From assembly GCA_048938855.1 (NCBI GenBank), contig JBHLLT010000001.1, positions 96,001-160,000 of the forward strand: a DNA stretch of 64,000 nt, written 5' to 3'. This document shows positions 19,001-63,969 of the stretch, in pieces. How positions within the stretch are numbered: position 1 is the stretch's first letter; each line of letters starts with the position of its first letter. The position numbers and the translations under genes are program-made. The notes beneath the pieces were generated by a model that saw only the letters and a list, made by a program, of their open reading frames with translations, was not told where the DNA came from and ran no database searches. Source of the DNA: Promethearchaeota archaeon (GTDB taxonomy: Archaea > Asgardarchaeota > Lokiarchaeia > Sigyniarchaeales > SOKP01).

Positions 19001-20453
19001 CTCCAGTAGCCTTCTGAATAATCAAATCTGTTTGAGTTGCTGTTTGATATCTCCATTGATCATACCGACTTCCCATACTCACTAGATTATTTTTTTCTTG
19101 TCTAATTGCAAGTCCGGTTCTATCATATGCATCATCAACTAAAAACCAGTACTCAATAGTTCCATTATCAACATTCATACTAAAATTATTATAGCAGCTT
19201 GCCCTATAAGAATATCCATTATCATCAAACCATAATACTTTATTATGGCCACTCCTACTCGAAACCACCGAAATAGGATAATTATCTGCGTTTATAAGGT
19301 AGGAAGGAAGAGTTCCATCTGGATCACTTTCAAATCCATATGTCGCGGGATAATATCCACTCATTGGTTCTGTATAGGTAATATTTTCAGGAGTAATTAT
19401 ATTGAGATAATATGAAGTATTAATTGTAAAATATCTAATATCAGACTTGTACATAGTTCCCATAGTATTATTACCAAAAACTTGGATGGTGTGTATCCCA
19501 TCTAAACTAGGATATGGGAATGTAGTATTTCCTAGAATCGTTTTATTTAATTGGTTATCAAAAGAATATCCCTGCCAATCAGGTATAAAAGAAGTATCAT
19601 AACTAAATAATAATCCTTCATCAAGGTTATCTCCGACATTATAGTGAGGATCCCAAGAGTATCCAATTGCATCAATATACATGTTATAACTGGTATGAGC
19701 TGTTGAGGTGCTCATATAAAAATTATCAGCAAAAGTCGCATTATTTTGGAATGGCATCTCTGCCGATTCTATTCCATCAATCCAACATTTCCATGCATAT
19801 TGATCTAATCCGGAATATTTTCCAGTAGTACATTCAAAATCAATTCTAATATGGTGCCATGTATTATCCAAAGGACTTGGCATATCACCTCCAGTTGCCC
19901 TTTGCATATTGAGATCTGTCTGAGTACTTGTGTGATATTTCCATTTATCATACCTACTTGAAAATTGAACTAAAGCAGTATCCCCTTGCCTTGTAATCAA
20001 TCCTGTTCGGTCATAAGCATCATCAATTAAAAACCATAATTCGATAGTACCATTATCAACATTTAGACTAAAGTTATTATAACAGCTTGCTCTATATGAA
20101 TATCCATTATCGTCAAACCATAATACTTTATTATGGCCACTCCTACTCGAAACCACTGAAATAGGAAAATCACCTAAGTTTACAATGTAGGAAGGAAGAG
20201 TTCCATCTGTATCACTTTCAAATCCATATGTTGCAGGATAATATCCACTCATCGGTTCTGTGTAGGTTATATTTTCTGGAGTATTAATATTAATCTCTGG
20301 TCCGCTTATTCTTAGTTCATGTAAATTAATAGGATCTTCTTTTAAATTTTCTAAAATAAAACTATAATTAACCGAACTAAAGAGCATAAAAGCACTAAAA
20401 ACAGAAATTAATAACATCAATAAAACAAATCTATTTGATTTCACATTTACCAT
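16077..20453 (-). CDS. Large secreted, C-terminally anchored surface glycoprotein with four lectin-like/Ig-like repeats
   Basis: N-terminal hydrophobic signal (likely start MVNVK at 20453; ORF open to 20504), 4 repeats, C-terminal Ig-like domains, TM helix plus basic tail, many N-x-S/T sequons. Confidence 0.8.
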   Translation of the reverse strand: MVNVKSNRFVLLMLLISVFSAFMLFSSVNYSFILENLKEDPINLHELRISGPEININTPENITYTEPMSGYYPATYGFESDTDGTLPSYIVNLGDFPISVVSSRSGHNKVLWFDDNGYSYRASCYNNFSLNVDNGTIELWFLIDDAYDRTGLITRQGDTALVQFSSRYDKWKYHTSTQTDLNMQRATGGDMPSPLDNTWHHIRIDFECTTGKYSGLDQYAWKCWIDGIESAEMPFQNNATFADNFYMSTSTAHTSYNMYIDAIGYSWDPHYNVGDNLDEGLLFSYDTSFIPDWQGYSFDNQLNKTILGNTTFPYPSLDGIHTIQVFGNNTMGTMYKSDIRYFTINTSYYLNIITPENITYTEPMSGYYPATYGFESDPDGTLPSYLINADNYPISVVSSRSGHNKVLWFDDNGYSYRASCYNNFSMNVDNGTIEYWFLVDDAYDRTGLAIRQEKNNLVSMGSRYDQWRYQTATQTDLIIQKATGGNMPAPLDNTWYHIRIAFECTTGNYLGLDQYTWKCWIDGVESAEMPFQSNEFYSDNFYMSTSTAHTSYNMYIDAIGYSWDPNYEIGDNVNEGLLLSFDTSFTPEWIGYSLDNQLNKTILGNTTFPYPSLNGIHTIQVFGNDSIGTMYESDIRYFTINSSYYLNIITPENITYTEPMSGYYPATYGFEDSGNGENPQGWTVVDIGGQVSIEANIGGHNKIVDIYKTSAGSGISCGFSQDIDNQTSGTIEFWWRVTSTSKITHFMVFENSIRLITLSLYDNSMLRYHDQGNWYYGFTYSADTWYLVSVDINMSTDTYSFSIFDDQGNLKQSGTDFTFEAVVTGDNFNRIDFNSGNFVSGYHHYVDAVGYSWDPNYEIGDNENEGLLLSLETNFTPEWIGYSLDGQTNKTILGNTTFPYPSLDGIHTIQVFSNNSIGTFYESDIRYFTINTSYYLNIITPENITYTEPMSGYYPATYGFEDTRDGSYPNGWKIEEESGTTFQIISGLDGHHKVAEFYDNDNTNIAYMRRDLCSTQIHGEVEWWMRISALRQSYVAFRENDVSGAYATYIAFNYNGWLQYCDGASQNIQDYTPNTWYHIKLEFNCDTDKINVSVNGVQKITNGNFWNPVNNIGGIEFYSGGAGGVDYNFYIDAIGFSWDPYYAIGDNFNEGLLLSFEKTPNFKWIGYSLDGNNNITIIGNITLPMLDNGLHSIQLFGNNSLGYFYSSDIRYFTLNIPIAPPQISINFPQAGDFYGYNAPYFEVSITSLYLDAKWYTLDNGMTKITFEGLSGTINQLEWENYGHGPVTIKFYANDTFGQESYAKITINKDLSPPNTTLLFTPYSGLNVVTDLTVFYLIADDHFESGVSIIRYRINSSSWIIYSGAFRLSGFSPGDYLITYQAFDLVGNIESEQTNVVNLYNTPDRISEISVPLTLSIILVASIGIAISIFAASILHDRNKSRIFIDEKKKRIDKITKDF
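16815..20295 (-). repeat. Four intragenic tandem repeats of about 290 aa (spacing 888, 888 and 870 nt)
   Basis: TPENITYTEPMSGYYPATYGFE occurs 4 times; DNA anchor CCACTCATYGGTTCTGT at 17599, 18469, 19357 and 20245. Confidence 0.92.
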
Positions 20454-21032
20454 TCTATTATATCCTATTTTTTTGTCTAATTTAATAATTATAATATTGA
20501 GCATATTATTAATAACTTTCTTTTGGTAGCTTTCCTATTAACTCTATACATAAAAATCTTATAATATTTTAAGTAATTCAATAATTTTTATTATAATTCA
20601 AGAAAATAGAGCGAAAAAGATTAATTGTTCTTTTTGAATTGTAAGAAAAATATAATTAATAAGGATTTTAGCTGTTAAAGAATAATAATTTTTTTTTAGG
20701 ATTGAATTATATATTTATTTAAGTTGATATGGAGTCTTGATGAGAAGAATATGAGTTTAAAAAAATCAATCTTTGAATTGAAAAAAATTTTTCATCCTGA
20801 TTCATTTTTCTTTTTATTATTTATTTTGCCAAGGGAATATCGCTTTTAATTTAAAATTATTCACTTGGCTGCGGATTTTTATATTTATCATTATTCAAAA
20901 ACAAAATTTTTATTGTGAAAAAAGACAAAAAATCTTTCTAATTCAAGATAGGGCTATTTGGAATGATTTAATTCACGAAAGATTTAAATACATTCGAGAT
21001 CTTAAAAGATATAATAAAAAAGAAAAATTTTA

Positions 21033-25457: not shown

Positions 25458-26915
25458 CTATTTAAATTTATCTAAATCTAATTTATCTATAGATTTAGTT
25501 ATTTTCAATTTTTCTCTCGATGATTCAGCTATCTTCTTAAGGTGATGCTGTTTTATAGTTCTAAATTCAGATAATTTTTCTTTATTTATATCAATCAAAT
25601 TATTATTCTCTCTAGGATCTAATTCCAAATTAAATAAGAATTCTGTATTATTTTCTTCATCATATATGTATTTCCAACCTTGATTTCGAATTGCTAATAA
25701 GAGAAATCCTTCTTTTTCATTTCTTTTCATAGAACCACTTTTTTGATAACATTCGGAAATGATAATACCAGTTTTTCTAAGAGTTTTACCTTTAATCAAT
25801 GAAAGTAGACTTACTCCCTGGAAGTTATCAGGAATTTCTATTCCATAATAATCTAAGATTGTTGGGGTTACATCAATTAATTGAATTGTATCATTTATCT
25901 TATTTTTGATTGATTTCTTACCTAATTCTACAATTATTAAAGGTACTCTCAAAACCTCATCAAAAATGGTCCCTTGATGGCCAAAAAACTCATGTTCATA
26001 AAAGCTTTCACCATGATCAGCAGTTATAATAATTAAACAGTCATTTTTAATTTCCTTTTTGACTGTTTCTAAAAAAAGGGCTAGATATTCATCAACAAAG
26101 TTAATTTCAGCATCATACAATGTTTTTAAATCATCTACATATTTAGGAGTTATTTCTATGTCCTTTACATTTGGATAAACTTGTTCTACAAGGAATTTTC
26201 TTTCCGATATATTAAAATCTTTTTTCCTAAAACTTAAAACATTTCGCATGGGAGGATTATAAGGACTATGAACATCCATAAAATGTGCCCAAATAAAACT
26301 AGGTTTTTTAAGGGTTTTTAAAAATGAATTTAATTTGTTTACAACATAGGGTGCATTATAAGCGATAGGTGTAAATGGTAGTAAAATGTCTGTAAGAAAG
26401 GGTATTTTCTTTCTTAACCATGTTTTTAATCTATTAAATCCTTTGATTCGGTACATTAACTTGTTTGATAGGTTATGATAGTCAAGAATTTTTTTCAAAT
26501 TAGCAATTAATTTGAGTTTTAAACTATTCTTAGGTTCTTTTTTATACCGTTCTCCGTCAAGAAAAGTGTCGAATCCACGGTCAAAATTAAAATATTTCCC
26601 AAGATTAGGGTTACTGTGAATTGCAAAGGTATTTATATTGTTTTCTTTTAACAGCTGTGGTAACGTGATTTTTTCAGGAGGTAATGGACTAAAACCGCCA
26701 TCTAATAAAGGTAAAATTGAAGTAAAGAGTGAAGAGAATGCAGTAGGTGACTCCGGTCCGTTTGTAATTGCGTTTAAAAAAATAGAACCTTCTTCAGCGA
26801 ATTTTTCCAAATATGGTGCAGTATTTCGGTGATATCCATAAGACTTCAAATGGTCGGCTCTTAAAGCATCAATAGTTAATAATATTACTGTCTTTTTTTG
26901 CTGTTCAGGAATCAT
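25458..26915 (-). CDS. Sulfatase-like hydrolase/transferase (alkaline phosphatase superfamily)
   Basis: LTIDALRADH, HFMDVHSPY, ITADHGE, GHQG, VPLII; ESPTAF in place of CxPxR. Confidence 0.85.
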   Translation of the reverse strand: MIPEQQKKTVILLTIDALRADHLKSYGYHRNTAPYLEKFAEEGSIFLNAITNGPESPTAFSSLFTSILPLLDGGFSPLPPEKITLPQLLKENNINTFAIHSNPNLGKYFNFDRGFDTFLDGERYKKEPKNSLKLKLIANLKKILDYHNLSNKLMYRIKGFNRLKTWLRKKIPFLTDILLPFTPIAYNAPYVVNKLNSFLKTLKKPSFIWAHFMDVHSPYNPPMRNVLSFRKKDFNISERKFLVEQVYPNVKDIEITPKYVDDLKTLYDAEINFVDEYLALFLETVKKEIKNDCLIIITADHGESFYEHEFFGHQGTIFDEVLRVPLIIVELGKKSIKNKINDTIQLIDVTPTILDYYGIEIPDNFQGVSLLSLIKGKTLRKTGIIISECYQKSGSMKRNEKEGFLLLAIRNQGWKYIYDEENNTEFLFNLELDPRENNNLIDINKEKLSEFRTIKQHHLKKIAESSREKLKITKSIDKLDLDKFK

Positions 26916-31835: not shown

Positions 31836-33302
31836 TTATTTTTTTGAAAAAATTCTCCTTGCTGATCTTTCAATTTTGCTTTCCTCAGATTTATAGTATT
31901 CAATGTATGGCAATATTTTACTAAATAGATGTTTTTTTATATCAATAATATTATTTTTTGTTGATTTACTAAGATCATATACTTCTCCAGGGTCGGCTTT
32001 TAAATTAAAAAGTTTTATAGATTTTGTTTGACCATCGAAAATTAATTTCCAATCTAATGTTCTACAAGAGATCATTATAAAGAATTTGTAAGAATCCTTA
32101 TTATAAGCTGTATAACTAATTTTATTATGATGCAATATAATACTTATAGCATATTTAGAATTTTTAAATCCATTTTCCTTTTTGATAATATTTACTAAAT
32201 TTCTTCCTTGATAGTTCTCATCTTTTGGAAGTTTAAATAAATTTAGAATTGTAGGCCCTATATCCAATAATTGTACTTGTTCTTGTAGAATTTTTGCTTT
32301 ATTTAATGAAGTATTGAGTTTAATTAAGAGTGGCACCCTAAGAAGTTCATCGTAAAGACTAGGATAATGGCTTAAGCAATTATGTTCAAACATTTCATCA
32401 CCATGATCCGCGGTAAGAATTATTTTAGTGGAATCATAAATGCTTAAGTTTTTTAAATATTTGATTAAAATTCCTATGTAAAAATCGACATAATTAAGTT
32501 CTGCATTATGTAATATTTCTATAGTCTTCCCTATTTTTTTTTTATCTAAATCTTTTGACCAATCTGGATTTGTGCTAATTTTATTTATAATTTGATTGAT
32601 AAACAATTTAGTGTCGTCAGAGATATGTTGATCCGATACATTTTTAATAGATTTATTGGATGGAAAATAGGGAGTATGTGCATCCATAAAATGGATCCAT
32701 AAAAAAAAATTTTTATGATAATTTCTTTTTAACCATTCAAGTGATTTTGCAGTAATGTTCCTAGCATTTAAATAGGGAGATTCTACTTTTTTTATAACAG
32801 ATCTTTTTAAAGTGTGTTTAAATATTTTTGAAAATATATTTCTAATTTTTTTACCATATTCTTTAAGGGAGAAAAATTCGAGGATTTTCTCGTTTATTAA
32901 ATATATTAGATTAACAAATTGTTTTTTTGAACTATAATATTGAGGTTTTTTGAACATATCATAAAAATCATCAAAACCAAGATTGTAATTGCAATAATTT
33001 CCTAAGTGTGGATTAGAATGAATTCCACAAGTTTTAATATTGTTTTCGCTGAGAATTTTATAAAAAGTTTTTTTATGCAAAGGTAAAGGTGCATAGGAGA
33101 CCTTCATTGCAGGTAATTCAGAAGTAAAAAGAGAATAAAAGGATGACGCAGTATTTGAACCATTTGCAATAGCATTATTAAAACAGTATGATTCTTTCGA
33201 CAACTTGTTGACATTAGGTAATATATCTTTATCATAACCATAAACTTTTAAGCAATCTCTTCGGCAGCAGTCAATTGTTATTAATATTAGTTTTTTTACC
33301 AT
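31836..33302 (-). CDS. Sulfatase-like hydrolase/transferase
   Basis: ITIDCCRRD, HSNPHL, HFMDAHTPY, LTADHGD, VPLLI; SNTASSF at the nucleophile position. Confidence 0.85.
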   Translation of the reverse strand: MVKKLILITIDCCRRDCLKVYGYDKDILPNVNKLSKESYCFNNAIANGSNTASSFYSLFTSELPAMKVSYAPLPLHKKTFYKILSENNIKTCGIHSNPHLGNYCNYNLGFDDFYDMFKKPQYYSSKKQFVNLIYLINEKILEFFSLKEYGKKIRNIFSKIFKHTLKRSVIKKVESPYLNARNITAKSLEWLKRNYHKNFFLWIHFMDAHTPYFPSNKSIKNVSDQHISDDTKLFINQIINKISTNPDWSKDLDKKKIGKTIEILHNAELNYVDFYIGILIKYLKNLSIYDSTKIILTADHGDEMFEHNCLSHYPSLYDELLRVPLLIKLNTSLNKAKILQEQVQLLDIGPTILNLFKLPKDENYQGRNLVNIIKKENGFKNSKYAISIILHHNKISYTAYNKDSYKFFIMISCRTLDWKLIFDGQTKSIKLFNLKADPGEVYDLSKSTKNNIIDIKKHLFSKILPYIEYYKSEESKIERSARRIFSKK

Positions 33303-36565: not shown

Positions 36566-37447
36566 ATGTTAAAATTTTTCTCAAGAGTGAGAACATTTGA
36601 AAATTTAAAAGAATATTTTTTTTTTAAAATAATATCTCTTATCTTTAAAACAAAAAATAAGGGTTTCCATATCTTTGATGAGGATTGGGATAATCTTATC
36701 ATCTTAGATGCTTGTCGATATGACTTTTTTAAGAAAATAATACCTTCTATAAATATCGATGGAGTGCTTAAAAAAAAAATATCTTTAGGTAGTCATACAG
36801 CTCAATTCCTAAAAGAAAATTTTAAAAACAGAAAATATGAAAATATCGTCTATTTAACAGCGAATCCCGTTGTAAATCAGTTACTAAATGATAGGTTTTA
36901 TCAAATAATTTCAGTATGGGATCAAGGATGGGATAAGAAATTTCATACTGTACTTCCAGAAGTTATGTATCAATACACTCTAAACGCAATAAAGAAGTAT
37001 CCAAATAAAAAATTGATTATCCATTTCATGCAACCACATTTTCCATATATTGGTTATGATATTAACAAAGGAATAATTAATACCGGTATTAAAAAAAGTA
37101 TTTTTTCTATATATCACAGTGATCATTGGACAAAATATAATCTTCTTTCTCTTTTGAAAGGATACTTGAAAAGTCTACAAATTTCTTTGTTTTATGTTAA
37201 AAAATTAGTTAATGTCTTATCAGGTACTACTGTTATTACATCAGATCATGGAGAGTCTTTTGGTGATTATATTCATCCTTTCTTTCCAATTAAGTTTTAT
37301 GGTCATGAAATTAATGTGAAAATGCCTGCATTAACCGAAATTCCATGGTTTGTCATTAAAAAACAGAAGATTGAATTAACTGAAAAAAGAAGTATGGAAT
37401 TAGAAAAGGAAATCTTAAGAACATCTATTAAAAAGCTTAAATTATAA
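36566..37447 (+). CDS. Short alkaline-phosphatase-superfamily (sulfatase-like) protein
   Basis: WDNLIILDACRYD, SLGSHT, HFMQPHFPY, ITSDHGE, YGH, PW. Confidence 0.8.
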   Translation: MLKFFSRVRTFENLKEYFFFKIISLIFKTKNKGFHIFDEDWDNLIILDACRYDFFKKIIPSINIDGVLKKKISLGSHTAQFLKENFKNRKYENIVYLTANPVVNQLLNDRFYQIISVWDQGWDKKFHTVLPEVMYQYTLNAIKKYPNKKLIIHFMQPHFPYIGYDINKGIINTGIKKSIFSIYHSDHWTKYNLLSLLKGYLKSLQISLFYVKKLVNVLSGTTVITSDHGESFGDYIHPFFPIKFYGHEINVKMPALTEIPWFVIKKQKIELTEKRSMELEKEILRTSIKKLKL

Positions 37448-37482: not shown

Positions 37483-38694
37483 TTAATTTGTCTTTTTAGC
37501 ATTTTCAGAAAAATTACTATTTAAAAATTGAGTTTTTATAAATCTATTGAGTTTATATCTTTCTCTAGCAAATTTACCTTCTGATAACAAATAATTTAAA
37601 GGACAACCATTGATAGGAATTTTAAGTTGATTTCCTATTAAATCATTGATTGTATGTATAATGTCAAATAGTGTAATGTCCATGTTAATCTTTAAACCTC
37701 CGAAACTACAAGATGGGAATTTTATTAAAAATGGAACCTGTTTTTGGAAATCGTAACCACCATTATGAAAAAAAGCATTGAATTGTAGTCTATTAGGAAT
37801 TTTTTTAATTTTGGGGAGTGTTTTTAATAGTCTCCTAATTCTATTATAAATTTTAAAAAACAGTGCATAAATTTTTAAAATTTTAGGGGGTAATCTGGAT
37901 CCAATATCCCCTAATCCTTCACCATGATCAGATGTAATGATTATTAAAGAATTATGATATAAATCTTTATCTTTTAAGATTTTAATCAAAGCTAGAATAT
38001 GATTATTCATAACTTCAATAATCCGTTTCTCATAAACCATTTTAACAAATTTAATACTTATTTCTCTTTTTTTTATTTTATTAATTAATTTTTTACCAAT
38101 TTCTCGATAATTTTGTCCAGTGATTTTGTCTTTGAAAAAATCGTTTATCCCATAATTATGATGCGTTTTCCAAAAATGCAGGAAAACAAAATTAGCATTG
38201 TCTTTATTTTCTATAATATAATTTTTCCATACATCTGGTATCATTCTAAATTCATCATCTGCGGAACCTACATAATCTTCTACATTATTACCTAAAAACT
38301 CTTTATCCCATACAAACATTGGTTCAAGGCCTAAATGATCGATAATCTGTTTACGAAATGGGATAACACTATCTTGTCCAACTATATTCTCATACTCTAA
38401 TGGATAATTTGTGAATAAAGCAGAATTACAAAAAGATTTAATCTTAAAACCAATTTTTTGTAATTGATAAGGAAAATCGAAGTATTTTGATTTAAAAAGG
38501 TAATCGCCAAAAAAAATTGCATAATGAGAATTAAATGTGTTTGTATATATTGAATTGCAGTTAGAGAAACTTACAAAATCATTTTGAATTTCATTACACA
38601 TATTTTGCATGTTAGAATAAAACACATCTCTTCTAACACTATCGAGTACGATCAGAAAAATGTTTTTTATATTATTTTTATCAATATCAGACAT
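37483..38694 (-). CDS. Sulfatase-like hydrolase/transferase (divergent)
   Basis: IVLDSVRRD, YTNTFNSH, HFWKTHHNY, ITSDHGE, VPFLIK. Confidence 0.75.
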   Translation of the reverse strand: MSDIDKNNIKNIFLIVLDSVRRDVFYSNMQNMCNEIQNDFVSFSNCNSIYTNTFNSHYAIFFGDYLFKSKYFDFPYQLQKIGFKIKSFCNSALFTNYPLEYENIVGQDSVIPFRKQIIDHLGLEPMFVWDKEFLGNNVEDYVGSADDEFRMIPDVWKNYIIENKDNANFVFLHFWKTHHNYGINDFFKDKITGQNYREIGKKLINKIKKREISIKFVKMVYEKRIIEVMNNHILALIKILKDKDLYHNSLIIITSDHGEGLGDIGSRLPPKILKIYALFFKIYNRIRRLLKTLPKIKKIPNRLQFNAFFHNGGYDFQKQVPFLIKFPSCSFGGLKINMDITLFDIIHTINDLIGNQLKIPINGCPLNYLLSEGKFARERYKLNRFIKTQFLNSNFSENAKKTN

Positions 38695-43729: not shown

Positions 43730-43918
43730 ATAGTCAGTAAAGCATCTCTATTACAATTAATAGTTTTAAGTAAATTAATAGGAACTATCTAAAAAACATT
43801 ATGTAGGGAAGGTAATATAATGCTTGCCTTAAACAAAACTTTTAATATTTCCCTATAATTATGGGTCATTACATAACATTAAATATAATGAAATATTATT
43901 GATGATAAATATCTTAAC

Positions 43919-44170
43919 ATGGTAATTTTAATGTCCGAAGATGAATATAAAGTAGAATATACTACGGTTTCAATTCCAAAACCTTTAGCCGAAAAAATAA
44001 AAGAGAGAATGAGAGGTACAGGTTTTGCGTCTGTATCAAGCTATGTTACATATGTATTAAGACAAGTGTTATCGTCTATAGAAGAAGAAGAGAGATCAAA
44101 ACAAGCATTTAGTAAAGAAGAAGAAGAAAAAGTTAAACAACGGTTAAGAGATTTAGGATATATTGATTAG
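43919..44170 (+). CDS. Ribbon-helix-helix (CopG-like) protein with C-terminal RLRDLGY tail
   Basis: YTTVSIPKPLAEKIKERM..GFASVSSYVTYVLR (RHH), then FSKEEEEKVKQRLRDLGYID; likely start at 43931. Confidence 0.85.
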   Translation: MVILMSEDEYKVEYTTVSIPKPLAEKIKERMRGTGFASVSSYVTYVLRQVLSSIEEEERSKQAFSKEEEEKVKQRLRDLGYID

Positions 44171-44224
44171 AAATGAAAAATTTTCAAAATGAGACTTTTT
44201 AATTAGAAGAGGTTATGAGCTTAA

Positions 44225-45373
44225 ATGATAAAACCACATGGTGGAACACTGATTAATAAGGAGTTACCCAGAATTGAAAAGGATCGGATAATGGAAGAAA
44301 TCGATGAATTTGAGAAAATTGCTGTTAAACCAGAGACACTTAAAGTAATCAAAAACATTGCTTTTGGAGTTTTTAGTCCCTTAGAAGGATTCATGAATGA
44401 AAATGATTATCATTATGTATTAGATACAATGTACTTGGAGAATAATATTGCTTGGCCCTTTCCAATTACGCTTGATGTCTCAGAGGAAGAAATTCAAAAT
44501 TTAAAACCTGATGATAAAATTATTCTGACAAACGATGCTGATTTTCCAATTGCATTAATGAGTATTGAATCAATTTATCATTACGATAAGAACCAATATG
44601 CTGAAAAGACTTATGGGACATTGGATAAGAATCACCCTGGAGTAACGAATGTTTTTAATTACAAACAACTCCTTATAGGAGGAGAAATATTCTTAATTAA
44701 CGAGCCTAGACCAATTTTCCCAGATTTAGATCTAAAGGCTGTTGAAACAAGAGTACTTTTTAAAGAAAAGGGTTGGGATAGGGTTGTAGCATTTCAAACT
44801 AGAAATCCTCCTCATTTAGGTCATGAATATGTTCAAAAAGCAGGATTGACATATGTAGATGGCCTATTTATCAATCCTGTTATTGGAAAGAAAAAAAAAG
44901 GCGATTTCTTAGATATTGTAATTATTGAAGCATACTTGTCACTTATAAAAGAATATTATCCTAAAAATAGAGTGGTGTTAAGCACATTTGAAACTGAAAT
45001 GAGATATGCAGGACCAAAAGAAGCTATTTTTCATGCTATAACACGAAAGAATTTTGGTTGCGATCATATAATAATAGGACGAGATCATGCGGGAGTTGGT
45101 AATTATTATGGGCCTTATGATGCTCATGATATATTCGATAAATTCCCTGATTTAGGTATTGAACCAATTAAATTCAGATCATTCTCAAAGTGTAGTAAAT
45201 GTAATGCCGTAGTTAATGATAAAATTTGTCCGCATCCACCTGAAATGCAAAATTATTTTGCAGGAAGAGAAATTAGAGCCGCATTACAGGCAGGAAAACC
45301 ACCTAGCATCGAAGTTATGCGCCCTGAAGTCGCAGAAGTTATTTTAAAATATAAAAACCCATTCGTAGAATAA
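44225..45373 (+). CDS. sat: Sulfate adenylyltransferase (ATP sulfurylase)
   Basis: PHGG, FSPLEGFM, AFQTRNPPHLGHE, MRYAGPKEA, GRDHAGVG, RPEV. Confidence 0.97.
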   Translation: MIKPHGGTLINKELPRIEKDRIMEEIDEFEKIAVKPETLKVIKNIAFGVFSPLEGFMNENDYHYVLDTMYLENNIAWPFPITLDVSEEEIQNLKPDDKIILTNDADFPIALMSIESIYHYDKNQYAEKTYGTLDKNHPGVTNVFNYKQLLIGGEIFLINEPRPIFPDLDLKAVETRVLFKEKGWDRVVAFQTRNPPHLGHEYVQKAGLTYVDGLFINPVIGKKKKGDFLDIVIIEAYLSLIKEYYPKNRVVLSTFETEMRYAGPKEAIFHAITRKNFGCDHIIIGRDHAGVGNYYGPYDAHDIFDKFPDLGIEPIKFRSFSKCSKCNAVVNDKICPHPPEMQNYFAGREIRAALQAGKPPSIEVMRPEVAEVILKYKNPFVE

Positions 45374-45409
45374 ATTATACTGAAAATACAATTCAAATGT
45401 TGAATTTTT

Positions 45410-46792
45410 GTGAATAAAAAAAGATTGGTCATAATTGGTCTAGACTGTGCCACCCCTAGAACTCTTTTTGAAGATTTTATTAATGATTGCCCTAACATAA
45501 AAAGACTGATAGAATCAGGGGTTTATGGAAAACTGAGAACTTGTGATCCCCCTATAACGATACCAGCATGGATGGTAATGGCAACAGGAAAAAAAGCAGG
45601 TACTTTGGGATTATACGGTTTTAGACATAGAAAGATAAATACTTATAACGATTTCTGGATAGCCTCCTCCTACAACATAAAAGAACCAAAAGTTTGGGAT
45701 ATTATTGCTAAAAAGGGATTAAAGTCATGTGTTTTAGGATTACCACCAACTTATCCACCCCAAAAAATAAATGGATGCCTAGTATCAGGATTTATTACTC
45801 CCGACAGTAAGGCAGAATTTACATATCCCCCAGAACTTAAAGAAGAGATTTTAAAAAATATAGGAGAATATTTGTTTGATGTCAATTTTAGGGTTGAAAA
45901 TAAAGAGATTTTATTGGAAGAAATCTATAAAATGAGTAAAATTCAATTTAAGACAATAAAATTTCTAATACAAAATAAAGAATGGGATTATTTTAAATTT
46001 GTAATCATTGGATTAGATAGATTCCACCATGCATTTTGGAAATACTATGATAAAAAACACCATAAATATGAACCAAATAATCCTTTCGAATTTGAAATGA
46101 AAAAATATTATAAATATTTAGATAAAGAAGTAGGTGAACTCTTAGAGATATTGGATGATGATACGGTTATAATGATTGTTTCAGATCATGGCGCAAAAGC
46201 AATGAAAGGTTTAATTTGTGTGAATATGGCACTTGAAGACTTAGGTCTTCTGAAATTTAAAACAAAACCAAGACCTAGAACCAGAATTGGAGAGGCAGAC
46301 ATTGACTGGGAGAATACCTATGCTTGGGGTTGGGGTGGATATTATGCGCGGATATTTTTAAATTTGAAAGGTAGAGAACCAAATGGAATAATAGAAAAAG
46401 AAGACTATGAAAAAATTCGAGATGAAATTATAGATAAAATAAAATCTATTAAAGATCACAAGGGTAACAAAATGAATACCAAGATATACAAACCTGAAGA
46501 TATCTTTGAGATTATTCGGGGAGATACTCCTGATTTAATGGTATATTTTGATGATTTAAATTGGAGATCTGCGGGAACCGTGGGATATGATTCAATGTAT
46601 TTAGATGAAAATGATACAGGTCCTGATGATGCAGTTCATGATTGGTATGGTGTATATTTGATTTATGATCCAAAAAAAAAAATAGGTAAAAATTTAGGAG
46701 TAAAAAGCATTCTCGATATAGCACCTACTTCACTTAATATTTTGGGAATAGATATTCCTTTTGACATGGAGGGCAAAATTATTAAATTTTAA
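45410..46792 (+). CDS. Nucleotide pyrophosphatase/phosphodiesterase-like alkaline phosphatase family protein
   Basis: IGLDCA, PPITIPAW (Thr nucleophile), DRFHHAFW, VSDHG, ENDTGPDDAVH. Confidence 0.88.
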   Translation: MNKKRLVIIGLDCATPRTLFEDFINDCPNIKRLIESGVYGKLRTCDPPITIPAWMVMATGKKAGTLGLYGFRHRKINTYNDFWIASSYNIKEPKVWDIIAKKGLKSCVLGLPPTYPPQKINGCLVSGFITPDSKAEFTYPPELKEEILKNIGEYLFDVNFRVENKEILLEEIYKMSKIQFKTIKFLIQNKEWDYFKFVIIGLDRFHHAFWKYYDKKHHKYEPNNPFEFEMKKYYKYLDKEVGELLEILDDDTVIMIVSDHGAKAMKGLICVNMALEDLGLLKFKTKPRPRTRIGEADIDWENTYAWGWGGYYARIFLNLKGREPNGIIEKEDYEKIRDEIIDKIKSIKDHKGNKMNTKIYKPEDIFEIIRGDTPDLMVYFDDLNWRSAGTVGYDSMYLDENDTGPDDAVHDWYGVYLIYDPKKKIGKNLGVKSILDIAPTSLNILGIDIPFDMEGKIIKF

Positions 46793-46812
46793 TAAAAAAG
46801 GTTAAAAAAAAA

Positions 46813-47355
46813 ATGGAGCATAAAGGATTTACATTATGGTTTACTGGACTTCCATGTTCAGGTAAAACTGTACTAGCAAACTCAGTTGCGGAGGACTTGA
46901 AAAGAAGAGGAATGAAAGTAGAGCGCCTTGATGGTGATATAGTAAGAAAGAGCTTAACTAAAGATTTAGGCTTTAGTGAAGAAGATAGAAATATGAACAT
47001 TGAAAGGGTAACATTTGTAGCTAAATTATTAACTCGAAATGGTGTTGCTGTGCTAGCTTCTTTTGTATCACCATATAATAAGATAAGAGCATATTCGCGT
47101 AAAGAGATTGGAGAATACATTCTTGTGTATGTAAAATGTTCGTTAGAAGAATGTGAAAATAGAGATGTAAAAGGGATGTATGCAAAGGCACGAGCAGGAG
47201 AAATAAAAGATTTCACAGGAATTGATCATCCTTTTGAAGAACCTGATCAAGTTGAGATTGTAGTAGAAACTGATAAACAAACAGTTGAAGAAAGTAAAGA
47301 AGTTGTTTTGAAAGCTTTAGCAAAACTAGGGTATCTTCCTAATCAACATAAATAA
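46813..47355 (+). CDS. cysC: Adenylyl-sulfate (APS) kinase
   Basis: WFTGLPCSGKT, LDGDIVR, SFVSPY, RDVKGMY, FTGIDHPFEEP. Confidence 0.96.
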   Translation: MEHKGFTLWFTGLPCSGKTVLANSVAEDLKRRGMKVERLDGDIVRKSLTKDLGFSEEDRNMNIERVTFVAKLLTRNGVAVLASFVSPYNKIRAYSRKEIGEYILVYVKCSLEECENRDVKGMYAKARAGEIKDFTGIDHPFEEPDQVEIVVETDKQTVEESKEVVLKALAKLGYLPNQHK

Positions 47356-59558: not shown

Positions 59559-61217
59559 TTATCTTAAACAAAAACCACATTTTCCAAACGATTTTATAGT
59601 CTGCTCCCAGCAATGATTATGATAAGCTCGATTACAATGTGGGCATTCTGTATGACAACTGTCATCTCCAGCTATTTTTTTAGTACAACTAGGACATTCA
59701 ATTTTGTGGCATATAACACATGAAACCACTGATACTTCGAAAATCTTTTTTGAAATTAAATTAAATAAATCAACGAGATAACTAAAGGGGGTCCATTCTT
59801 TAAAAAAATCATTGAAGGAGGCATGTAAATCATTCTTAATTTTTTCATGAGCTTCAAGTTCAAATTCATTAATAACCTTCACTTCTGGCATTTTCATTGG
59901 ATAATCAATTGGCAGATTAATTTGAAAGTTAAATGTAAGATCTTCTGTCTTCATTTTTCCCTTCATTTCAACATTTAAAGTGGCTGTTGTTTGATCAAAT
60001 TTTATGTTTTTATAATGATCCTTTAATAAATCAATTTCAAAATTAATTCTTGAATTTTTATCGACTAACCAGGAGATTTCTCTGATGATTTCAACTGGTT
60101 CAGTTTCATTTTCCATCCAACCTTGATAAGCGTTTAATTCCTCAATAGGTTTTTTAATAATATCCAGTAATTCAGGATCCAATTCAATAATCGGAGGATT
60201 TGGATAGGGATCTAAATCAATTTCCATTATATACTCTTTAAATCCATAAGTCAGTAGATTGACCTTCAATTTTGTTAAACTATTCGGAATATTTTCACAT
60301 TGATACTCTCCAGATATTTTCTTAGACTGTATTTCAATTTCTTTTACAAAAAAGAGTTTCTTTTCTAACTCATGTAATACGTCTACAATATGTGGAGACT
60401 TTTTGGAATCCCATTCTTTTAAATTGTCAATTGATGTATAAGGATCTCCTAAAATACTCCTTGTCTCGTCTGAGAATGTTATGATTGGTCTTTCTGGATA
60501 ATTCATGAAATCTATTGTAATTATAAATGTTTTTGTAAGAGTTATAGTTATATAAATATTGACTACTGCTCGCCTAGAATCAATTTGATCATAAGCATAT
60601 TCTTGTTGAATTAAACTAAGTTCGGTGTTGATAAGCACCCCTAAATCTTCACTATCTTCTATTATATATTCATCTTGAACTATATTCGATCCTAAATTTT
60701 GTCTAAGTTCTTGAGGTGAACTACTTGATGAATTGTCTGTATAAAATAAATCATCTGTCTTTTCTAGGGAAGTGATATTTTCATCATATTGAAAATCTGG
60801 AGGATAAGCATTTAGATCGGGCGTTATAAATTCTTCTTCTTCGGTTGTAATTTTATTAACATATTCATCACTTATACTTTTTTCTTCTACATCTTTTTCT
60901 AAAGATTTAACAGCACTTTCAATTTTAGATCTCAACTCTTCAACAACATCAACTACAGTAGAGTTTGGTGTCCATTTAATTAAATTATTTAACTGAAAAT
61001 CACCTAATAATTTAGTTATTTCATTATGATAAATCATTTGAGGAGGAGAATTTGGAAACTCATCATCAAATTTAATCTCTAACTCATACTTTTTATCTTG
61101 AGCTTCATAAACATAACCATAAAGGTGTGATATTTCACCTGAAACCATCCAAAATGAAAACTCTTTGGCTATTTTTTGAGCTTCTCTTAATATTCTTTGC
61201 CTATCCATAAAAGTCAC
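59559..61217 (-). CDS. Multi-UBC-like (UEV/RWD) domain protein with C-terminal RING-type zinc finger; putative E3 ligase
   Basis: Four repeats with (F/Y)PxxP and later W..(V/L)xx(V/I/L) motifs; Cys/His-rich C-terminus CVIC..CPHC..HNHC..CGFC. Confidence 0.7.
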   Translation of the reverse strand: MTFMDRQRILREAQKIAKEFSFWMVSGEISHLYGYVYEAQDKKYELEIKFDDEFPNSPPQMIYHNEITKLLGDFQLNNLIKWTPNSTVVDVVEELRSKIESAVKSLEKDVEEKSISDEYVNKITTEEEEFITPDLNAYPPDFQYDENITSLEKTDDLFYTDNSSSSSPQELRQNLGSNIVQDEYIIEDSEDLGVLINTELSLIQQEYAYDQIDSRRAVVNIYITITLTKTFIITIDFMNYPERPIITFSDETRSILGDPYTSIDNLKEWDSKKSPHIVDVLHELEKKLFFVKEIEIQSKKISGEYQCENIPNSLTKLKVNLLTYGFKEYIMEIDLDPYPNPPIIELDPELLDIIKKPIEELNAYQGWMENETEPVEIIREISWLVDKNSRINFEIDLLKDHYKNIKFDQTTATLNVEMKGKMKTEDLTFNFQINLPIDYPMKMPEVKVINEFELEAHEKIKNDLHASFNDFFKEWTPFSYLVDLFNLISKKIFEVSVVSCVICHKIECPSCTKKIAGDDSCHTECPHCNRAYHNHCWEQTIKSFGKCGFCLR

Positions 61218-61321: not shown

Positions 61322-62848
61322 TCAAATTTGAGAATTTGAATTCTTAAATATTAAACTTCTTAATAAAGCAATGAAATCTTTAATTTCTTTGAAAGTTACT
61401 GCCTTTAATAACAATATTACAATCAAAAATATACCAAAATAAAATCCTGAAAATACTAATAATATCAATACATTGGTTAGATTAAATTGAAAGAAGAGAT
61501 TAATAAGATAGATAAATACCAGCACAGAGGCTGCTGAAATTACATATTTAAATATTGTGGGCAACATATTTGAATCAAAATTTATCTTATTTTTTTTCTT
61601 TACCAAGATGGTTGAATATATTGTATATATTGAATTTGGAATCATTATTGATAATATTGCACCCACAGTGTAAAAAATAGGGATTAAGATGAAACTTAAG
61701 GTGATGGTAAAAACAGAGGCAATAGCGTAAAGTTTATATACTAGCTTTGGTTCGTTAGAAGCCCATAAGAAATAACCCCCAGCTACATCAATTATGTTGA
61801 TATTAAGAAAAAATATATACAACTTTAGATAATCAGCAACAGGAGCATAACTAGGAGCAAACATTAATGCAATTAAAGGATCTGAGAAAAATAGAAAATA
61901 AAAAGATATTGGAATTGTTAACAACAAACCATATTTAAAAATTAAATTATAAATTGTCTGAATCTTTCCTCTTTCCTCAGGCACATCTTTTTGAATATAA
62001 TGAGAAACATAGGGGAGTATAAATCTCGAGAAAATTATTGCAGGGATGGAAAAACTCACAATCATCCATTGTACAATCGTATAATATGCTATTTCACTGT
62101 CATCATAAGCAGCTAAGATAAATTGATTAGAGTATGTGATAACATTTTGAAAAAATACATAAAGAAAAATAAAAATTGAAAATTTCAAGAGAGTTCTCGA
62201 TAACTCACGATTAAATTTAAAAAAGGATGATAAGTAATTGTATTTAATTTGAGCAAAAATTAAGATTACAATTAATTGAATTAACAGGGCAAAGGAAAAT
62301 AACATGACAATTTGAGGCAATGACATATTAACAATAAAGATAAAACTTACAATGATAACTTTTATCACTTTAGAAAAGATAAATGATATAGCGAATAGAT
62401 TAAATTTCCATAAACCTTGAAATATGCTTTCAAAATAATTAACAATATTATTAGAAATTAAGATTAAGGAGGTAAATTTTAGGACAATACCTAGACCTGG
62501 CATATGATAGAATGATTCGAATAAATCAGCACATAAAAAGAGTATTACTGAAAATATTAACGTAAACAGAATAATCCATTTTAATCCTTCAGAAAATAAT
62601 TTAACAAGTTTATTTGGATCTTTATCTTTTTCTGCTGATAATTGCTGGATTATAGTTGTACTTAACCCTACATTTGAAAAAATTGTAAAAAAAGTTAAAA
62701 ATGTCAAAGAAAACTGATAAACCGCATATTCTCCAGGAGGAAAATTATGTGTTAATATTAAAACAATTAATAAATTGGATATAAAGGCTATTAATAAAGT
62801 GATTGAAATTATAAAAAAACTCTTGAATGCCTCTTGTTTATTCTTCAT
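61322..62848 (-). CDS. Oligosaccharide flippase (Wzx/MOP family)
   Basis: About 14 TM segments; MOP-type pattern (..PGEYAVY.., GLSTTIIQ, ..IAYY..). Confidence 0.85.
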   Translation of the reverse strand: MKNKQEAFKSFFIISITLLIAFISNLLIVLILTHNFPPGEYAVYQFSLTFLTFFTIFSNVGLSTTIIQQLSAEKDKDPNKLVKLFSEGLKWIILFTLIFSVILFLCADLFESFYHMPGLGIVLKFTSLILISNNIVNYFESIFQGLWKFNLFAISFIFSKVIKVIIVSFIFIVNMSLPQIVMLFSFALLIQLIVILIFAQIKYNYLSSFFKFNRELSRTLLKFSIFIFLYVFFQNVITYSNQFILAAYDDSEIAYYTIVQWMIVSFSIPAIIFSRFILPYVSHYIQKDVPEERGKIQTIYNLIFKYGLLLTIPISFYFLFFSDPLIALMFAPSYAPVADYLKLYIFFLNINIIDVAGGYFLWASNEPKLVYKLYAIASVFTITLSFILIPIFYTVGAILSIMIPNSIYTIYSTILVKKKNKINFDSNMLPTIFKYVISAASVLVFIYLINLFFQFNLTNVLILLVFSGFYFGIFLIVILLLKAVTFKEIKDFIALLRSLIFKNSNSQI

Positions 62849-63099: not shown

Positions 63100-63969
63100 T
63101 TGCCCTCAAATCATACTCAAAAGCTTCCAAATTTTTTATGCATTGGAGCTGAAAGAAGCGGTACTACGTGGTTATATGAAGTGCTAAAAAATCATCCAGA
63201 GGTTTATTTATATCCTTACCTTAAAGAGATTAATTTTTTTAGTGAACATTATAAAAAGGGATTGAATTGGTATAAACAATTTTTTGTGAACTCACAAAAA
63301 TTTTCATATAAAGCAATTGGAGATATTTCTCCTCAATATTTTCACGAAAAGGAAACCTCGTCTCGTGTTGCTAATGATCTGCCAGATGTTCGTTTTATTT
63401 TGATTTTAAGAAATCCTGTGAATAGGGCTTTTTCTGAATATACTTATAATAAATTGATTTTGAACATAGAAGATTCTTTTATGGAATTCTTGAAGAAAAG
63501 ATCTCGTGCATACGAAATTGGATTTTATTCTCAGCATCTCAAAAGGTGGTTTGAAGTTTTTCCAAAAGATCAATTTTTAATATTTATATTTGAAGAAATG
63601 ATGGATGATAAAATTAAGTCCTTAAAGAAAATATCCGATTTTTTGAATATTCAATTTAATCTTTTTGATAGGAATATCGTTTTGAGTAAAATTCATTCCT
63701 CTGATATTCCTAGATTCCATGGATTATATACTCATGGATACAAAGTTGCTAGTAAAATGAATGAATATCTTGTCTCGAAGGATTTATATCTAATTTCATC
63801 AAATCTTAAGCGATTTAAAAAATTGTTTGATTTATTTAGTAGTAAAAGTGAGAAAGAAAAGATAAATCCGATCTTACAGAAGAAACTGTATTTAAATTAT
63901 AAAGAAGATATTCTAGAATTAGAAAATATATTAGGGAGAGATTTAAATCACTGGAAATTTGAAGATTAA
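63100..63969 (+). CDS. PAPS-dependent sulfotransferase
   Basis: 5'-PSB loop PNFLCIGAERSGTTWL, KEINFF, SPQY, 3'-PB LRNPVNRAFSEY. Confidence 0.9.
   Translation: MPSNHTQKLPNFLCIGAERSGTTWLYEVLKNHPEVYLYPYLKEINFFSEHYKKGLNWYKQFFVNSQKFSYKAIGDISPQYFHEKETSSRVANDLPDVRFILILRNPVNRAFSEYTYNKLILNIEDSFMEFLKKRSRAYEIGFYSQHLKRWFEVFPKDQFLIFIFEEMMDDKIKSLKKISDFLNIQFNLFDRNIVLSKIHSSDIPRFHGLYTHGYKVASKMNEYLVSKDLYLISSNLKRFKKLFDLFSSKSEKEKINPILQKKLYLNYKEDILELENILGRDLNHWKFED

Follow-up and report, generated by a model that had tools for sequence, protein, structure and literature searches.

The 64,000-nucleotide stretch of DNA analyzed here (the window) contains an operon for PAPS synthesis that opens with a gene for a small RHH protein, and the same-strand neighbors of this gene are sat, an NPP-type enzyme gene and cysC. 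The question raised by this locus is why a protein that resembles a regulator should end in a C-terminal tail, FSKEEEEKVKQRLRDLGYID, that is also found on AlkP-fold enzymes. The preliminary description of the window proposed a sulfo-relay, in which the tail Tyr is transiently sulfated, the NPP enzyme cleaves the phosphosulfate bond of APS or PAPS and loads the tail, and the sulfatase-like enzymes of the locus unload the group onto glycan. We arrive at a different answer, to which we give a probability of roughly 80%: the RHH-tail protein is a dedicated, autoregulated RHH transcription factor of the archaeal PAPS operon, and most likely its repressor.

Translation of ORF 43919–44170 gives an 83-aa product that does end in FSKEEEEKVKQRLRDLGYID, as first described. 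Nearly all homologs are 79 aa long with an MSEDEYK N-terminus, and the ATG at 43931 has a Shine-Dalgarno-like GGTAA 5 nt upstream of it, so the gene most likely runs from 43931 to 44170 (+ strand) and encodes a 79-aa protein, of which the tail forms residues 59–79 (44105–44167, + strand). The AF2 model of this protein (pLDDT 85.6, and 94–95 across residues 11–50) has helices at residues 17–28, 35–59, and 62–75. All top Foldseek matches to the model are RHH proteins (NikR, ParD, Arc, and omega); the NikR alignment has an rmsd of 1.0 over 42 columns, and 71 columns align with ParD-like chains. With so small a domain, the E-values of the matches are weak. Model and matches thus agree on the RHH fold, an N-terminal beta-strand followed by two helices. 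PF01402 (RHH_1) scores only 14 bits (E 0.05) against a cut-off of 20.5, and none of the NCBIfam profiles match. The family comprises 861 clusters at 50% identity. A PDB sequence search returned nothing for either the RHH-tail protein or the operon NPP, and an experimental structure showing a docking site for the tail is therefore absent.

The region upstream of the gene carries evidence for autoregulation. A TATA-box-like AT-rich element, a likely part of the operon promoter from aligned upstream regions, lies at 43838–43849 (+ strand), and TTTATAA/TTTATATA elements are found at the same distance 5′ of a repeat array in 30 Asgard loci as well as in euryarchaeal loci. The array itself, a putative operator at 43856–43891 (+ strand), is placed after the TATA box and before the start codon and consists of three in-phase 10-bp units (TAATTA../TCATTA../ACATTA..) along with a fourth, degenerate one (TAATGA). 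Nowhere else in the 3.95-Mb genome do three such units recur every 10 bp; a genome-wide search with the strict three-unit pattern found the operon's own promoter and nothing else. Among the aligned upstream regions the array is the best-conserved block, and a TAATTAAAT(R) tandem array precedes family genes in Thermococcus, Methanocaldococcus, Thermoplasmata, Altiarchaeales, and Aenigmarchaeota. Overall it was detected in 44 of 95 family upstream regions, vs. 22 of 1897 random windows. Repeated half-sites at a gene's own promoter are a feature of the RHH superfamily, P22 Mnt/Arc, CopG, NikR, and ParD-type antitoxins having tandem or inverted operator repeats that overlap their own promoters, and the RHH-tail gene has such half-sites in putative form. 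The conserved array shows the RHH-tail protein to be a probable binder of its own promoter. RHH dimers would occupy the tandem 10-bp TAATTA-type repeats between TATA box and start codon and, to judge from this position, would block use of the promoter. Archaeal PAPS synthesis supplies glycan and metabolite sulfation, and we know of nothing on how it is regulated. The analysis provides a concrete putative operator, conserved across phyla, together with a candidate repressor, both of which are testable in the tractable Thermococcales.

A gene cluster of this kind has been published from Pyrococcus yayanosii (PYCH_17520–17560) and Thermococcus onnurineus (TON_1704–1707), with the order copG-sat-DHH pApase-NPP-cysC(-tauE) (PMC8268124, PMC4463584). 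The window shares with it the gene order, the small CopG-type gene before sat, the NPP-type enzyme, and cysC, and the Thermococcales loci have the same tail and the same putative operator. PYCH_17520 is annotated as a “putative copG transcription factor” (PMC8268124), and the CopG gene PAP_09880, which is located beside sat (PAP_09885), is up-regulated along with it (PMC6981617). The regulator is thus already published, but only as putative; the cluster papers describe neither tail nor operator (PMC8268124, PMC4463584), nor did we find the operator or the tail shared by regulator and enzymes in other literature within reach of our search. The window differs from the published cluster in being set in an Asgard glycan locus and in having no DHH pApase, tauE, or small sulfotransferase gene in the operon, or in the genome with the queries used (tblastn with three operon DHH proteins gave nothing at E 1e-3). 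The DHH gene is also missing from most Asgard copies of the operon.

Genomic context ties the RHH-tail gene to sulfate activation in general. The large archaeal family to which it belongs has sat (or cysDN) as its neighbor in Asgard, Thermococci, Methanocaldococcus, and Thermoplasmata, and the four-gene cassette (RHH-tail, sat, NPP, cysC) is kept in Asgard loci. In our survey of 301 Asgard genomes, 88 of the 93 with an RHH-tail gene also have sat. Of 72 loci outside Asgard (Thermococci, Methanocaldococcus, Thermoplasmata, and others), about 61 have the gene directly upstream of sat, and only about 16 include an NPP; in 5 further loci the gene precedes cysD/cysN. The RHH-tail gene tracks sat/cysDN, not NPP. 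In most of about 100 loci from other genomes its same-strand neighbors are sat/cysDN, DHH, NPP, cysC, sulfotransferase, or tauE. Toxin genes adjoin it neither in the window nor in most of these loci, and a type II antitoxin of the ParD/CcdA type was rejected for want of an adjacent cognate toxin gene. One apparent natural knockout of the regulator (G228) proved to be a gene cut by the end of a contig. Distant members from metagenome contigs, mostly <3 kb, were uninformative as to context.

The enzymes of the operon fit this picture. The sat gene (44225–45373, + strand) encodes an ATP sulfurylase with PUA_2 and ATP-sulfurylase domains (PF01747 E 3.6e-81; NF003166 474 bits), and cysC (46813–47355, + strand) an APS kinase (PF01583 E 2.1e-59). 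Between them lies a COG3379/NPP-type AlkP enzyme (45410–46792, + strand; PF01663 E 5.4e-47) with a PPITIPAW...ATG motif at the Thr nucleophile region. It ends in DMEGKIIKF, with no tail, as had been noted. To our knowledge, no phosphosulfate-cleaving activity exists for this type of enzyme. At 54% identity over its full length to an operon NPP from Methanocaldococcus sp., it is, on sequence comparison, an ortholog of the Methanocaldococcus and Thermococcales operon NPPs, TON_1705 included. TON_1705, from the same operon position, is reported as a characterized inorganic pyrophosphatase (PMC9653972, PMC4463584, PMC8268124), and a table in one of these papers gives a kcat of 2.1 per s and a Km of 18.8 uM for PPi hydrolysis (PMC9653972); TON_1705 is the one enzyme of this type for which we know of such a measurement. 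The operon NPP is probably an inorganic pyrophosphatase of the TON_1705 type, and the proposal that it loads the tail loses its footing. By this orthology, Sat and CysC would make PAPS, and the tail-less NPP-type enzyme would hydrolyze pyrophosphate and so pull the unfavorable Sat reaction forward.

The PAPS would then go to ordinary sulfotransferases encoded in the glycan locus around the operon. A canonical PAPS-dependent sulfotransferase (PF00685, above the cut-off at 81.3 bits, E 1.2e-22) is encoded at 63100–63969 (+ strand), with a PSB-loop-like GAERSGTTW and an RNPVNRAFS motif; it adjoins a Wzx-type flippase (61322–62848) and probably uses the PAPS that the operon makes. PF00685 sulfotransferases are present in the genome, this one being in the window, and canonical PAPS sulfotransferases are also found inside many related operons. 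Since no PAPS reductase (PF01507) was found in the genome and canonical sulfotransferases are present, we take the operon to serve sulfation rather than assimilation. The locus had also been described as holding four sulfatase-like enzymes without a tail. The LGY tail is indeed missing from all four, although only three are clear PF00884 proteins (25458–26915, 31836–33302, and 37483–38694); the fourth (36566–37447) matches weakly (E 1.4e-3), under the Pfam cut-off. In none of the four do the first 150 residues contain a C/S-x-P-x-R formylglycine motif.

On the repressor reading, the tail would serve the regulator as a functional helix. Its L, G, and Y are invariant across 89 RHH-tail family members, its conservation equals or exceeds that of the RHH core (0.64 vs. 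0.47–0.60), and it is near-identical between phyla. A C-terminal helix after an N-terminal RHH dimer is also seen in P22 Mnt/Arc, CopG, NikR, and ParD-type antitoxins, and such helices either oligomerize (Mnt) or wrap a protein partner (ParD-ParE). The RHH-tail protein is unlike the NikR and ParD-type families in having no ligand-binding domain and no toxin gene beside it, and we know of no 20-residue tail module common to metabolic enzymes and any of these families. The most economical reading is that the tail would provide dimer-dimer cooperativity along the repeats or would bind a conserved partner that sets DNA binding. Many AlkP-fold enzymes would have the same mini-module as a docked C-terminal helix. 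The conservation of the tail, however, exceeds the needs of a simple oligomerization helix and points to a conserved protein partner. Identifying what the tail binds could show it to be no more than a cooperativity helix, or could uncover a novel coupling of a metabolic enzyme to the transcription of its operon.

A transcription factor and nothing more leaves unexplained why enzymes of the pathway itself, with AlkP-fold or PAPS_reduct domains, bear the tail as well. The preliminary description held that many sulfatase/NPP-family proteins carry such a tail, and they do: 83 of the 120 best homologs of one tail-bearing COG3379 AlkP enzyme end in ...EEEEIKERLRxLGY[ILV]x. Matches to a tail-only profile in 301 Asgard genomes are the C-termini of 420–580 aa ORFs, and all those classified among the ORFs with a genuine LGY tail are PF01663 or PF00884 proteins. 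Using residues 44–83 of the 83-aa ORF as query for longer proteins with a fused tail gave 17 candidates, none significant, the tail being too short for the database searched.

One explanation for the sharing, unlikely in our estimate and compatible with a transcription-factor role, is that an enzyme without a tail of its own, the operon NPP or some other AlkP-fold protein, receives the regulator's tail in trans where relatives hold their fused tail in cis, so that the enzyme titrates the repressor or the repressor modulates the enzyme. In the AF2 model of a tail-bearing NPP relative (pLDDT 92.4 for the whole model), the linker and tail helix (residues 481–528) have pLDDT 80–98, which suggests, from pLDDT only, that the fused tail packs on the AlkP domain. 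The operon NPP has the same fold and aligns with this relative from end to end, stopping about 48 residues earlier. All operon NPPs examined with a complete C-terminus are tail-less, and none of the tail-fused enzymes found adjoins an RHH-tail gene. The suggestion that tail-less enzymes go with stand-alone tails, and fused tails occur elsewhere, thus stands at the level of loci but fails at that of genomes, five of which (G011, G022, G041, G132, and G276) hold both forms. Furthermore, in about 50 of the 72 euryarchaeal operons an AlkP enzyme is missing although the RHH-tail gene is there and its tail is nearly identical; the only COG3379 members elsewhere in four genomes with such operons are heterogeneous, and a fifth genome has none.

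A broader version, which we regard as doubtful to the same degree, makes the LGY tail a pathway-wide docking tag: a portable helix of 20 residues for which AlkP-fold and possibly other sulfate-pathway enzymes have a conserved site, fused in cis to many enzymes and supplied in trans by the repressor. If this is right, free enzyme without a tail, for instance the operon pyrophosphatase, would titrate the repressor or come under its control, and transcription of PAPS synthesis would be tied directly to enzyme occupancy in several archaeal phyla.

Convergence, in which the tails are alike only as generic helices (acidic N-cap, amphipathic helix, Gly-based C-cap) with no function shared between regulator and enzymes, is considerably less probable. 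The motif is short, and the LGYL at the end of CysC (...LAKLGYLPNQHK), which had been grouped with the tail, is just such a fold-intrinsic cap: it lies in the helix with which APS kinases normally end, and the solved structure 7yq0 ends in LMELGYL. However, the regulator and enzyme tails are similar over about 20 positions ([FL][ST]xE[DE]Exx[IV]KxRLRxLGY[LI][DE]), with per-genome E-values of 1e-8 to 1e-11. Of the long ORFs classified, moreover, none but AlkP-fold and PAPS_reduct proteins have the tail, and a search of the whole 3.95-Mb genome found a single carrier of a FSKEEEEKVKQRLRDLGYID-type tail, the RHH-tail protein. The tail profile also gave weak scores for a few CysC C-termini and for a phage integrase, the latter a match that is probably due to chance and is the kind that convergence would predict.

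The sulfo-relay is not supported and is very improbable: the invariant Tyr, the presence of the tail on several classes of sulfate-pathway protein, and the missing formylglycine motifs speak for it, but the RHH-tail gene has its own conserved putative operator and follows sat rather than the AlkP enzymes, the NPP ortholog is a characterized pyrophosphatase, canonical PAPS sulfotransferases are available in the genome and in many operons, Lys replaces Tyr in about 25% of enzyme tails, and neither this analysis nor the literature searched indicates a Tyr-sulfate intermediate. Its model was DltX, a membrane micro-protein whose C-terminal Tyr carries an acyl group in D-alanylation. The RHH-tail protein is likewise small, with a conserved Tyr near its C-terminus, but it is soluble, has a putative operator of its own and no indicated group transfer, and its Tyr lies two residues from the end; a carrier of this type was also rejected on the failure of strict co-occurrence with an enzyme, most euryarchaeal operons with the RHH-tail gene lacking an AlkP enzyme. 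The closest precedent in its favor is Agl30/Agl31 of Halobacterium salinarum, AlkP-fold (sulfatase-fold) proteins of a glycosylation cluster that are genetically N-glycan sulfotransferases, needed for sugar sulfation (PMC11980604). The glycan locus of the window, with three to four sulfatase-fold proteins, resembles that cluster by fold and setting but has a canonical PAPS sulfotransferase as well, and the paper describes neither a tail nor an RHH partner, gives no chemistry for a donor, and names neither PAPS nor any sulfate donor (PMC11980604).

A TPR protein was considered as receptor for the tail and set aside, as there is no TPR gene in the window or beside RHH-tail genes. At three loci, tail-bearing NPPs adjoin large TPR or TPR-CHAT proteins.

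The small gene at the head of the sat-NPP-cysC operon is best read as encoding a putative ribbon-helix-helix (RHH) repressor of that operon, in a gene cluster that is itself already published. Four closely packed genes lie on the + strand of the window: the small ORF (43919/43931-44170), sat (44225-45373; PF01747 plus PUA_2), an NPP-type AlkP enzyme (45410-46792; PF01663, E 5.4e-47) and cysC (46813-47355; PF01583). The translated ORFs reproduce as written the C-terminal sequences given for the small protein, the NPP and CysC in the preliminary description. The small gene likely starts at 43931, giving a product of 79 aa, because nearly all homologues have this length and a GGTAA site, which aligns with AGGTGA of euryarchaeal relatives, precedes that ATG. 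Judged by the source names of these homologues, the organism is an Asgard archaeon. The AF2 model of the small protein is confident, and its top Foldseek matches are RHH proteins only, including ParD-type antitoxins over 71 columns. The family comprises 861 clusters at 50% identity, 65-100 aa long for the most part, all with both the RHH and a C-terminal tail (an acidic helix plus RL(R/K)xLGY). Within it, conservation of the tail equals or exceeds that of the DNA-binding core, and the tail is near-identical across Thermococci, Thermoplasmata and Asgard archaea. Longer relatives also exist (P0124, P0143, P0154, P0197, P0211 and P0250); one carries two tandem RHH-tail modules behind an N-terminal RHH, and in several of ~200 aa an unknown middle domain separates the N-terminal RHH from an RHH-tail.

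Alignment of the regions upstream of 31 Asgard loci revealed one conserved block, 40-75 nt 5' of the start codon. The window's copy consists of three in-phase 10-bp units (43856-43881) and a degenerate fourth, and this three-unit array is the sole such site in the whole genome. Euryarchaeal loci carry the same tandem TAATTAAAT(R) array, of 3-5 units, with a TATA-like element on one side and the Shine-Dalgarno site on the other, and it is kept even in the GC-richer DNA of Thermococcus. A relaxed three-unit pattern was present in 44 of 95 upstream regions, compared to 22 of 1897 random and 15 of 232 AT-matched windows. The 10-base spacing would place successive RHH dimers on one helix face, 3' of the TATA box, a layout for this putative operator that would be expected of a cooperative repressor. 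PYCH_17520 has been named a “putative copG transcription factor” (PMC8268124), and in Palaeococcus the CopG gene adjoining sat goes up together with sat (PMC6981617). We found no earlier description of the phylum-spanning putative operator in the literature searched.

The tail on the RHH protein is confirmed, and so is the premise that such a tail is a common C-terminal appendage of sulfatase/NPP enzymes. When a profile of the family was run against 301 Asgard genomes, its tail-only matches fell at the C-terminal ends of ORFs of 500-580 aa, every one classified being PF01663 or PF00884; a 24-column tail profile added further AlkP-fold matches, some of them sulfatase-type enzymes from the same genus as the window. 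The sole non-AlkP-fold exception, a weak match on an integrase (C-terminus RLRNLGK), seems to be due to chance. One tail-bearing enzyme carries the annotation “predicted AlkP superfamily phosphohydrolase/phosphomutase”; of its 120 best homologues, 83 have the ending ...EEEEIKERLRxLGY[ILV]x and the majority of the others a basic variant, KERIKxLKxLGKI. An LGY tail also ends both an aenigmarchaeote PAPS_reduct-domain protein that adjoins an RHH-tail gene (L135:2893-3390) and an NPP-PAPS_reduct fusion from Patescibacteria (P0394, 757 aa); the tail is therefore not restricted to AlkP-fold proteins. No description of a tail module shared by a regulator with AlkP-fold and PAPS_reduct enzymes was found in the literature searched.

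Scanned in full and in all six frames, the window's genome shows the tail only once, and the tail-only profile agrees. The LGYL ending of CysC is different, as it aligns with the final helix in APS kinases of solved structure. An 89-aa ORF outside the window (contig G000:C34, around 192045, - strand) has an Arc/MetJ-like motif and ends in ...NLKLLGYFEEIP, an ending that might be distantly related to the tail or resemble it by chance. At three loci of other Asgard genomes (L042:4289-7705, L045:4657-7044 and L047:1649-3831), NPP enzymes with the tail adjoin very large TPR proteins; one of these neighbors is fused to a CHAT protease domain, and the Pfam scan covered the neighbors at L042 and L045. 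By analogy with EEVD-TPR, the TPR proteins might serve as receptors of the ...LGYLD C-terminus, though this is only a hunch.

The regulator's tail could fill, in trans, the site taken by the fused tail of enzyme relatives. In the AF2 model of a tail-bearing relative (pLDDT 92.4), linker and tail (residues 481-528) have pLDDT of 80-98 in 10-residue blocks, with a helix at 511-523, which suggests a tail docked on the AlkP domain rather than free. The operon NPP aligns with residues 1-480 of this relative and then ends, and for these two reasons the idea stays alive. Against it, tails that are almost the same are also kept where the operon or the genome lacks such an enzyme. The RHH-tail gene lies immediately 5' of sat in ~61 of 72 loci (Thermococci, Methanocaldococcus, Thermoplasmata, Altiarchaeales and Aenigmarchaeota) and 5' of cysD/cysN in 5 further loci; in the same 72-locus set a DHH pApase is usual and a small canonical sulfotransferase frequent, and NPP is present in only ~16. 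This genomic context settles the question against a role specific to the NPP.

In Asgard loci the RHH-tail gene stands at the head or tail of sat-NPP-cysC, frequently in two copies and frequently beside a TauE permease. In many of these operons sat-NPP-cysC is flanked by RHH-tail paralogues, two or three in number (L048, L049, L051, L052 and L055), and in L051 and L052 one comes after an NPP whose own tail is basic and degenerate. Among the 301 Asgard genomes, sat is also present in 88 of the 93 that carry the RHH-tail gene, and 45 have sat without it, mainly of the fused 580-aa sat-cysC type, counts that are descriptive, as related genomes are not independent. Some matches in the five RHH-tail genomes without sat lie at contig ends.

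The proposed sulfo-relay, in which the NPP enzyme loads the tail Tyr with sulfate and sulfatase-like enzymes pass it to glycan, is not supported, as the small protein reads as an RHH repressor and PAPS has a likely conventional consumer. That route presumed no ordinary sulfotransferase, but the window's genome encodes two (PF00685/PF13469): a canonical PAPS-dependent one inside the window (63100-63969, +; PF00685, 81 bits) and a second at G000:C20:41960-42787. With these two, and no PF01507 PAPS reductase domain found in this 97% complete genome, PAPS is therefore made for sulfation. Homologues of the operon-type DHH pApase, TauE and small sulfotransferase were not found in the genome by tblastn. 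The operon NPP shares 54% identity with the Methanocaldococcus operon copy, and its position is that of TON_1705 and PYCH_17550 in Thermococcales. A published listing gives TON_1705 as an inorganic pyrophosphatase (kcat 2.1 per s, Km 18.8 uM; PMC9653972), and the enzyme has been discussed as a PPi-removing partner of ATP sulfurylase (PMC4463584, PMC8268124).

On its 5' side the operon is preceded by a glycan-biosynthesis locus with GT4 glycosyltransferases, methyltransferases, an ABC-2 exporter, sugar epimerases and three clear plus one weak sulfatase-fold genes (25458-26915, 31836-33302, 37483-38694 and 36566-37447). As the preliminary description stated, the tail is missing from all sulfatase-fold proteins checked; the formylglycine C/S-x-P-x-R motif is likewise absent from the first 150 residues of all four, which may be not sulfatases but sulfotransferases of the kind represented by Agl30/Agl31 in Halobacterium (PMC11980604). 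On the 3' side are pentose-phosphate genes, further sugar-nucleotide enzymes and a Wzx-type flippase (61322-62848) adjoining the canonical sulfotransferase. Close to the glycan locus, a 1475-aa protein (16077-20504, -) includes a sialidase-like carbohydrate-binding module and is probably located at the cell surface. Another protein, of 552 aa (59559-61217, -), combines a ubiquitin-conjugating (UQ_con) with an RWD/UBC-like domain and is probably a component of an Asgard ubiquitin-like system.
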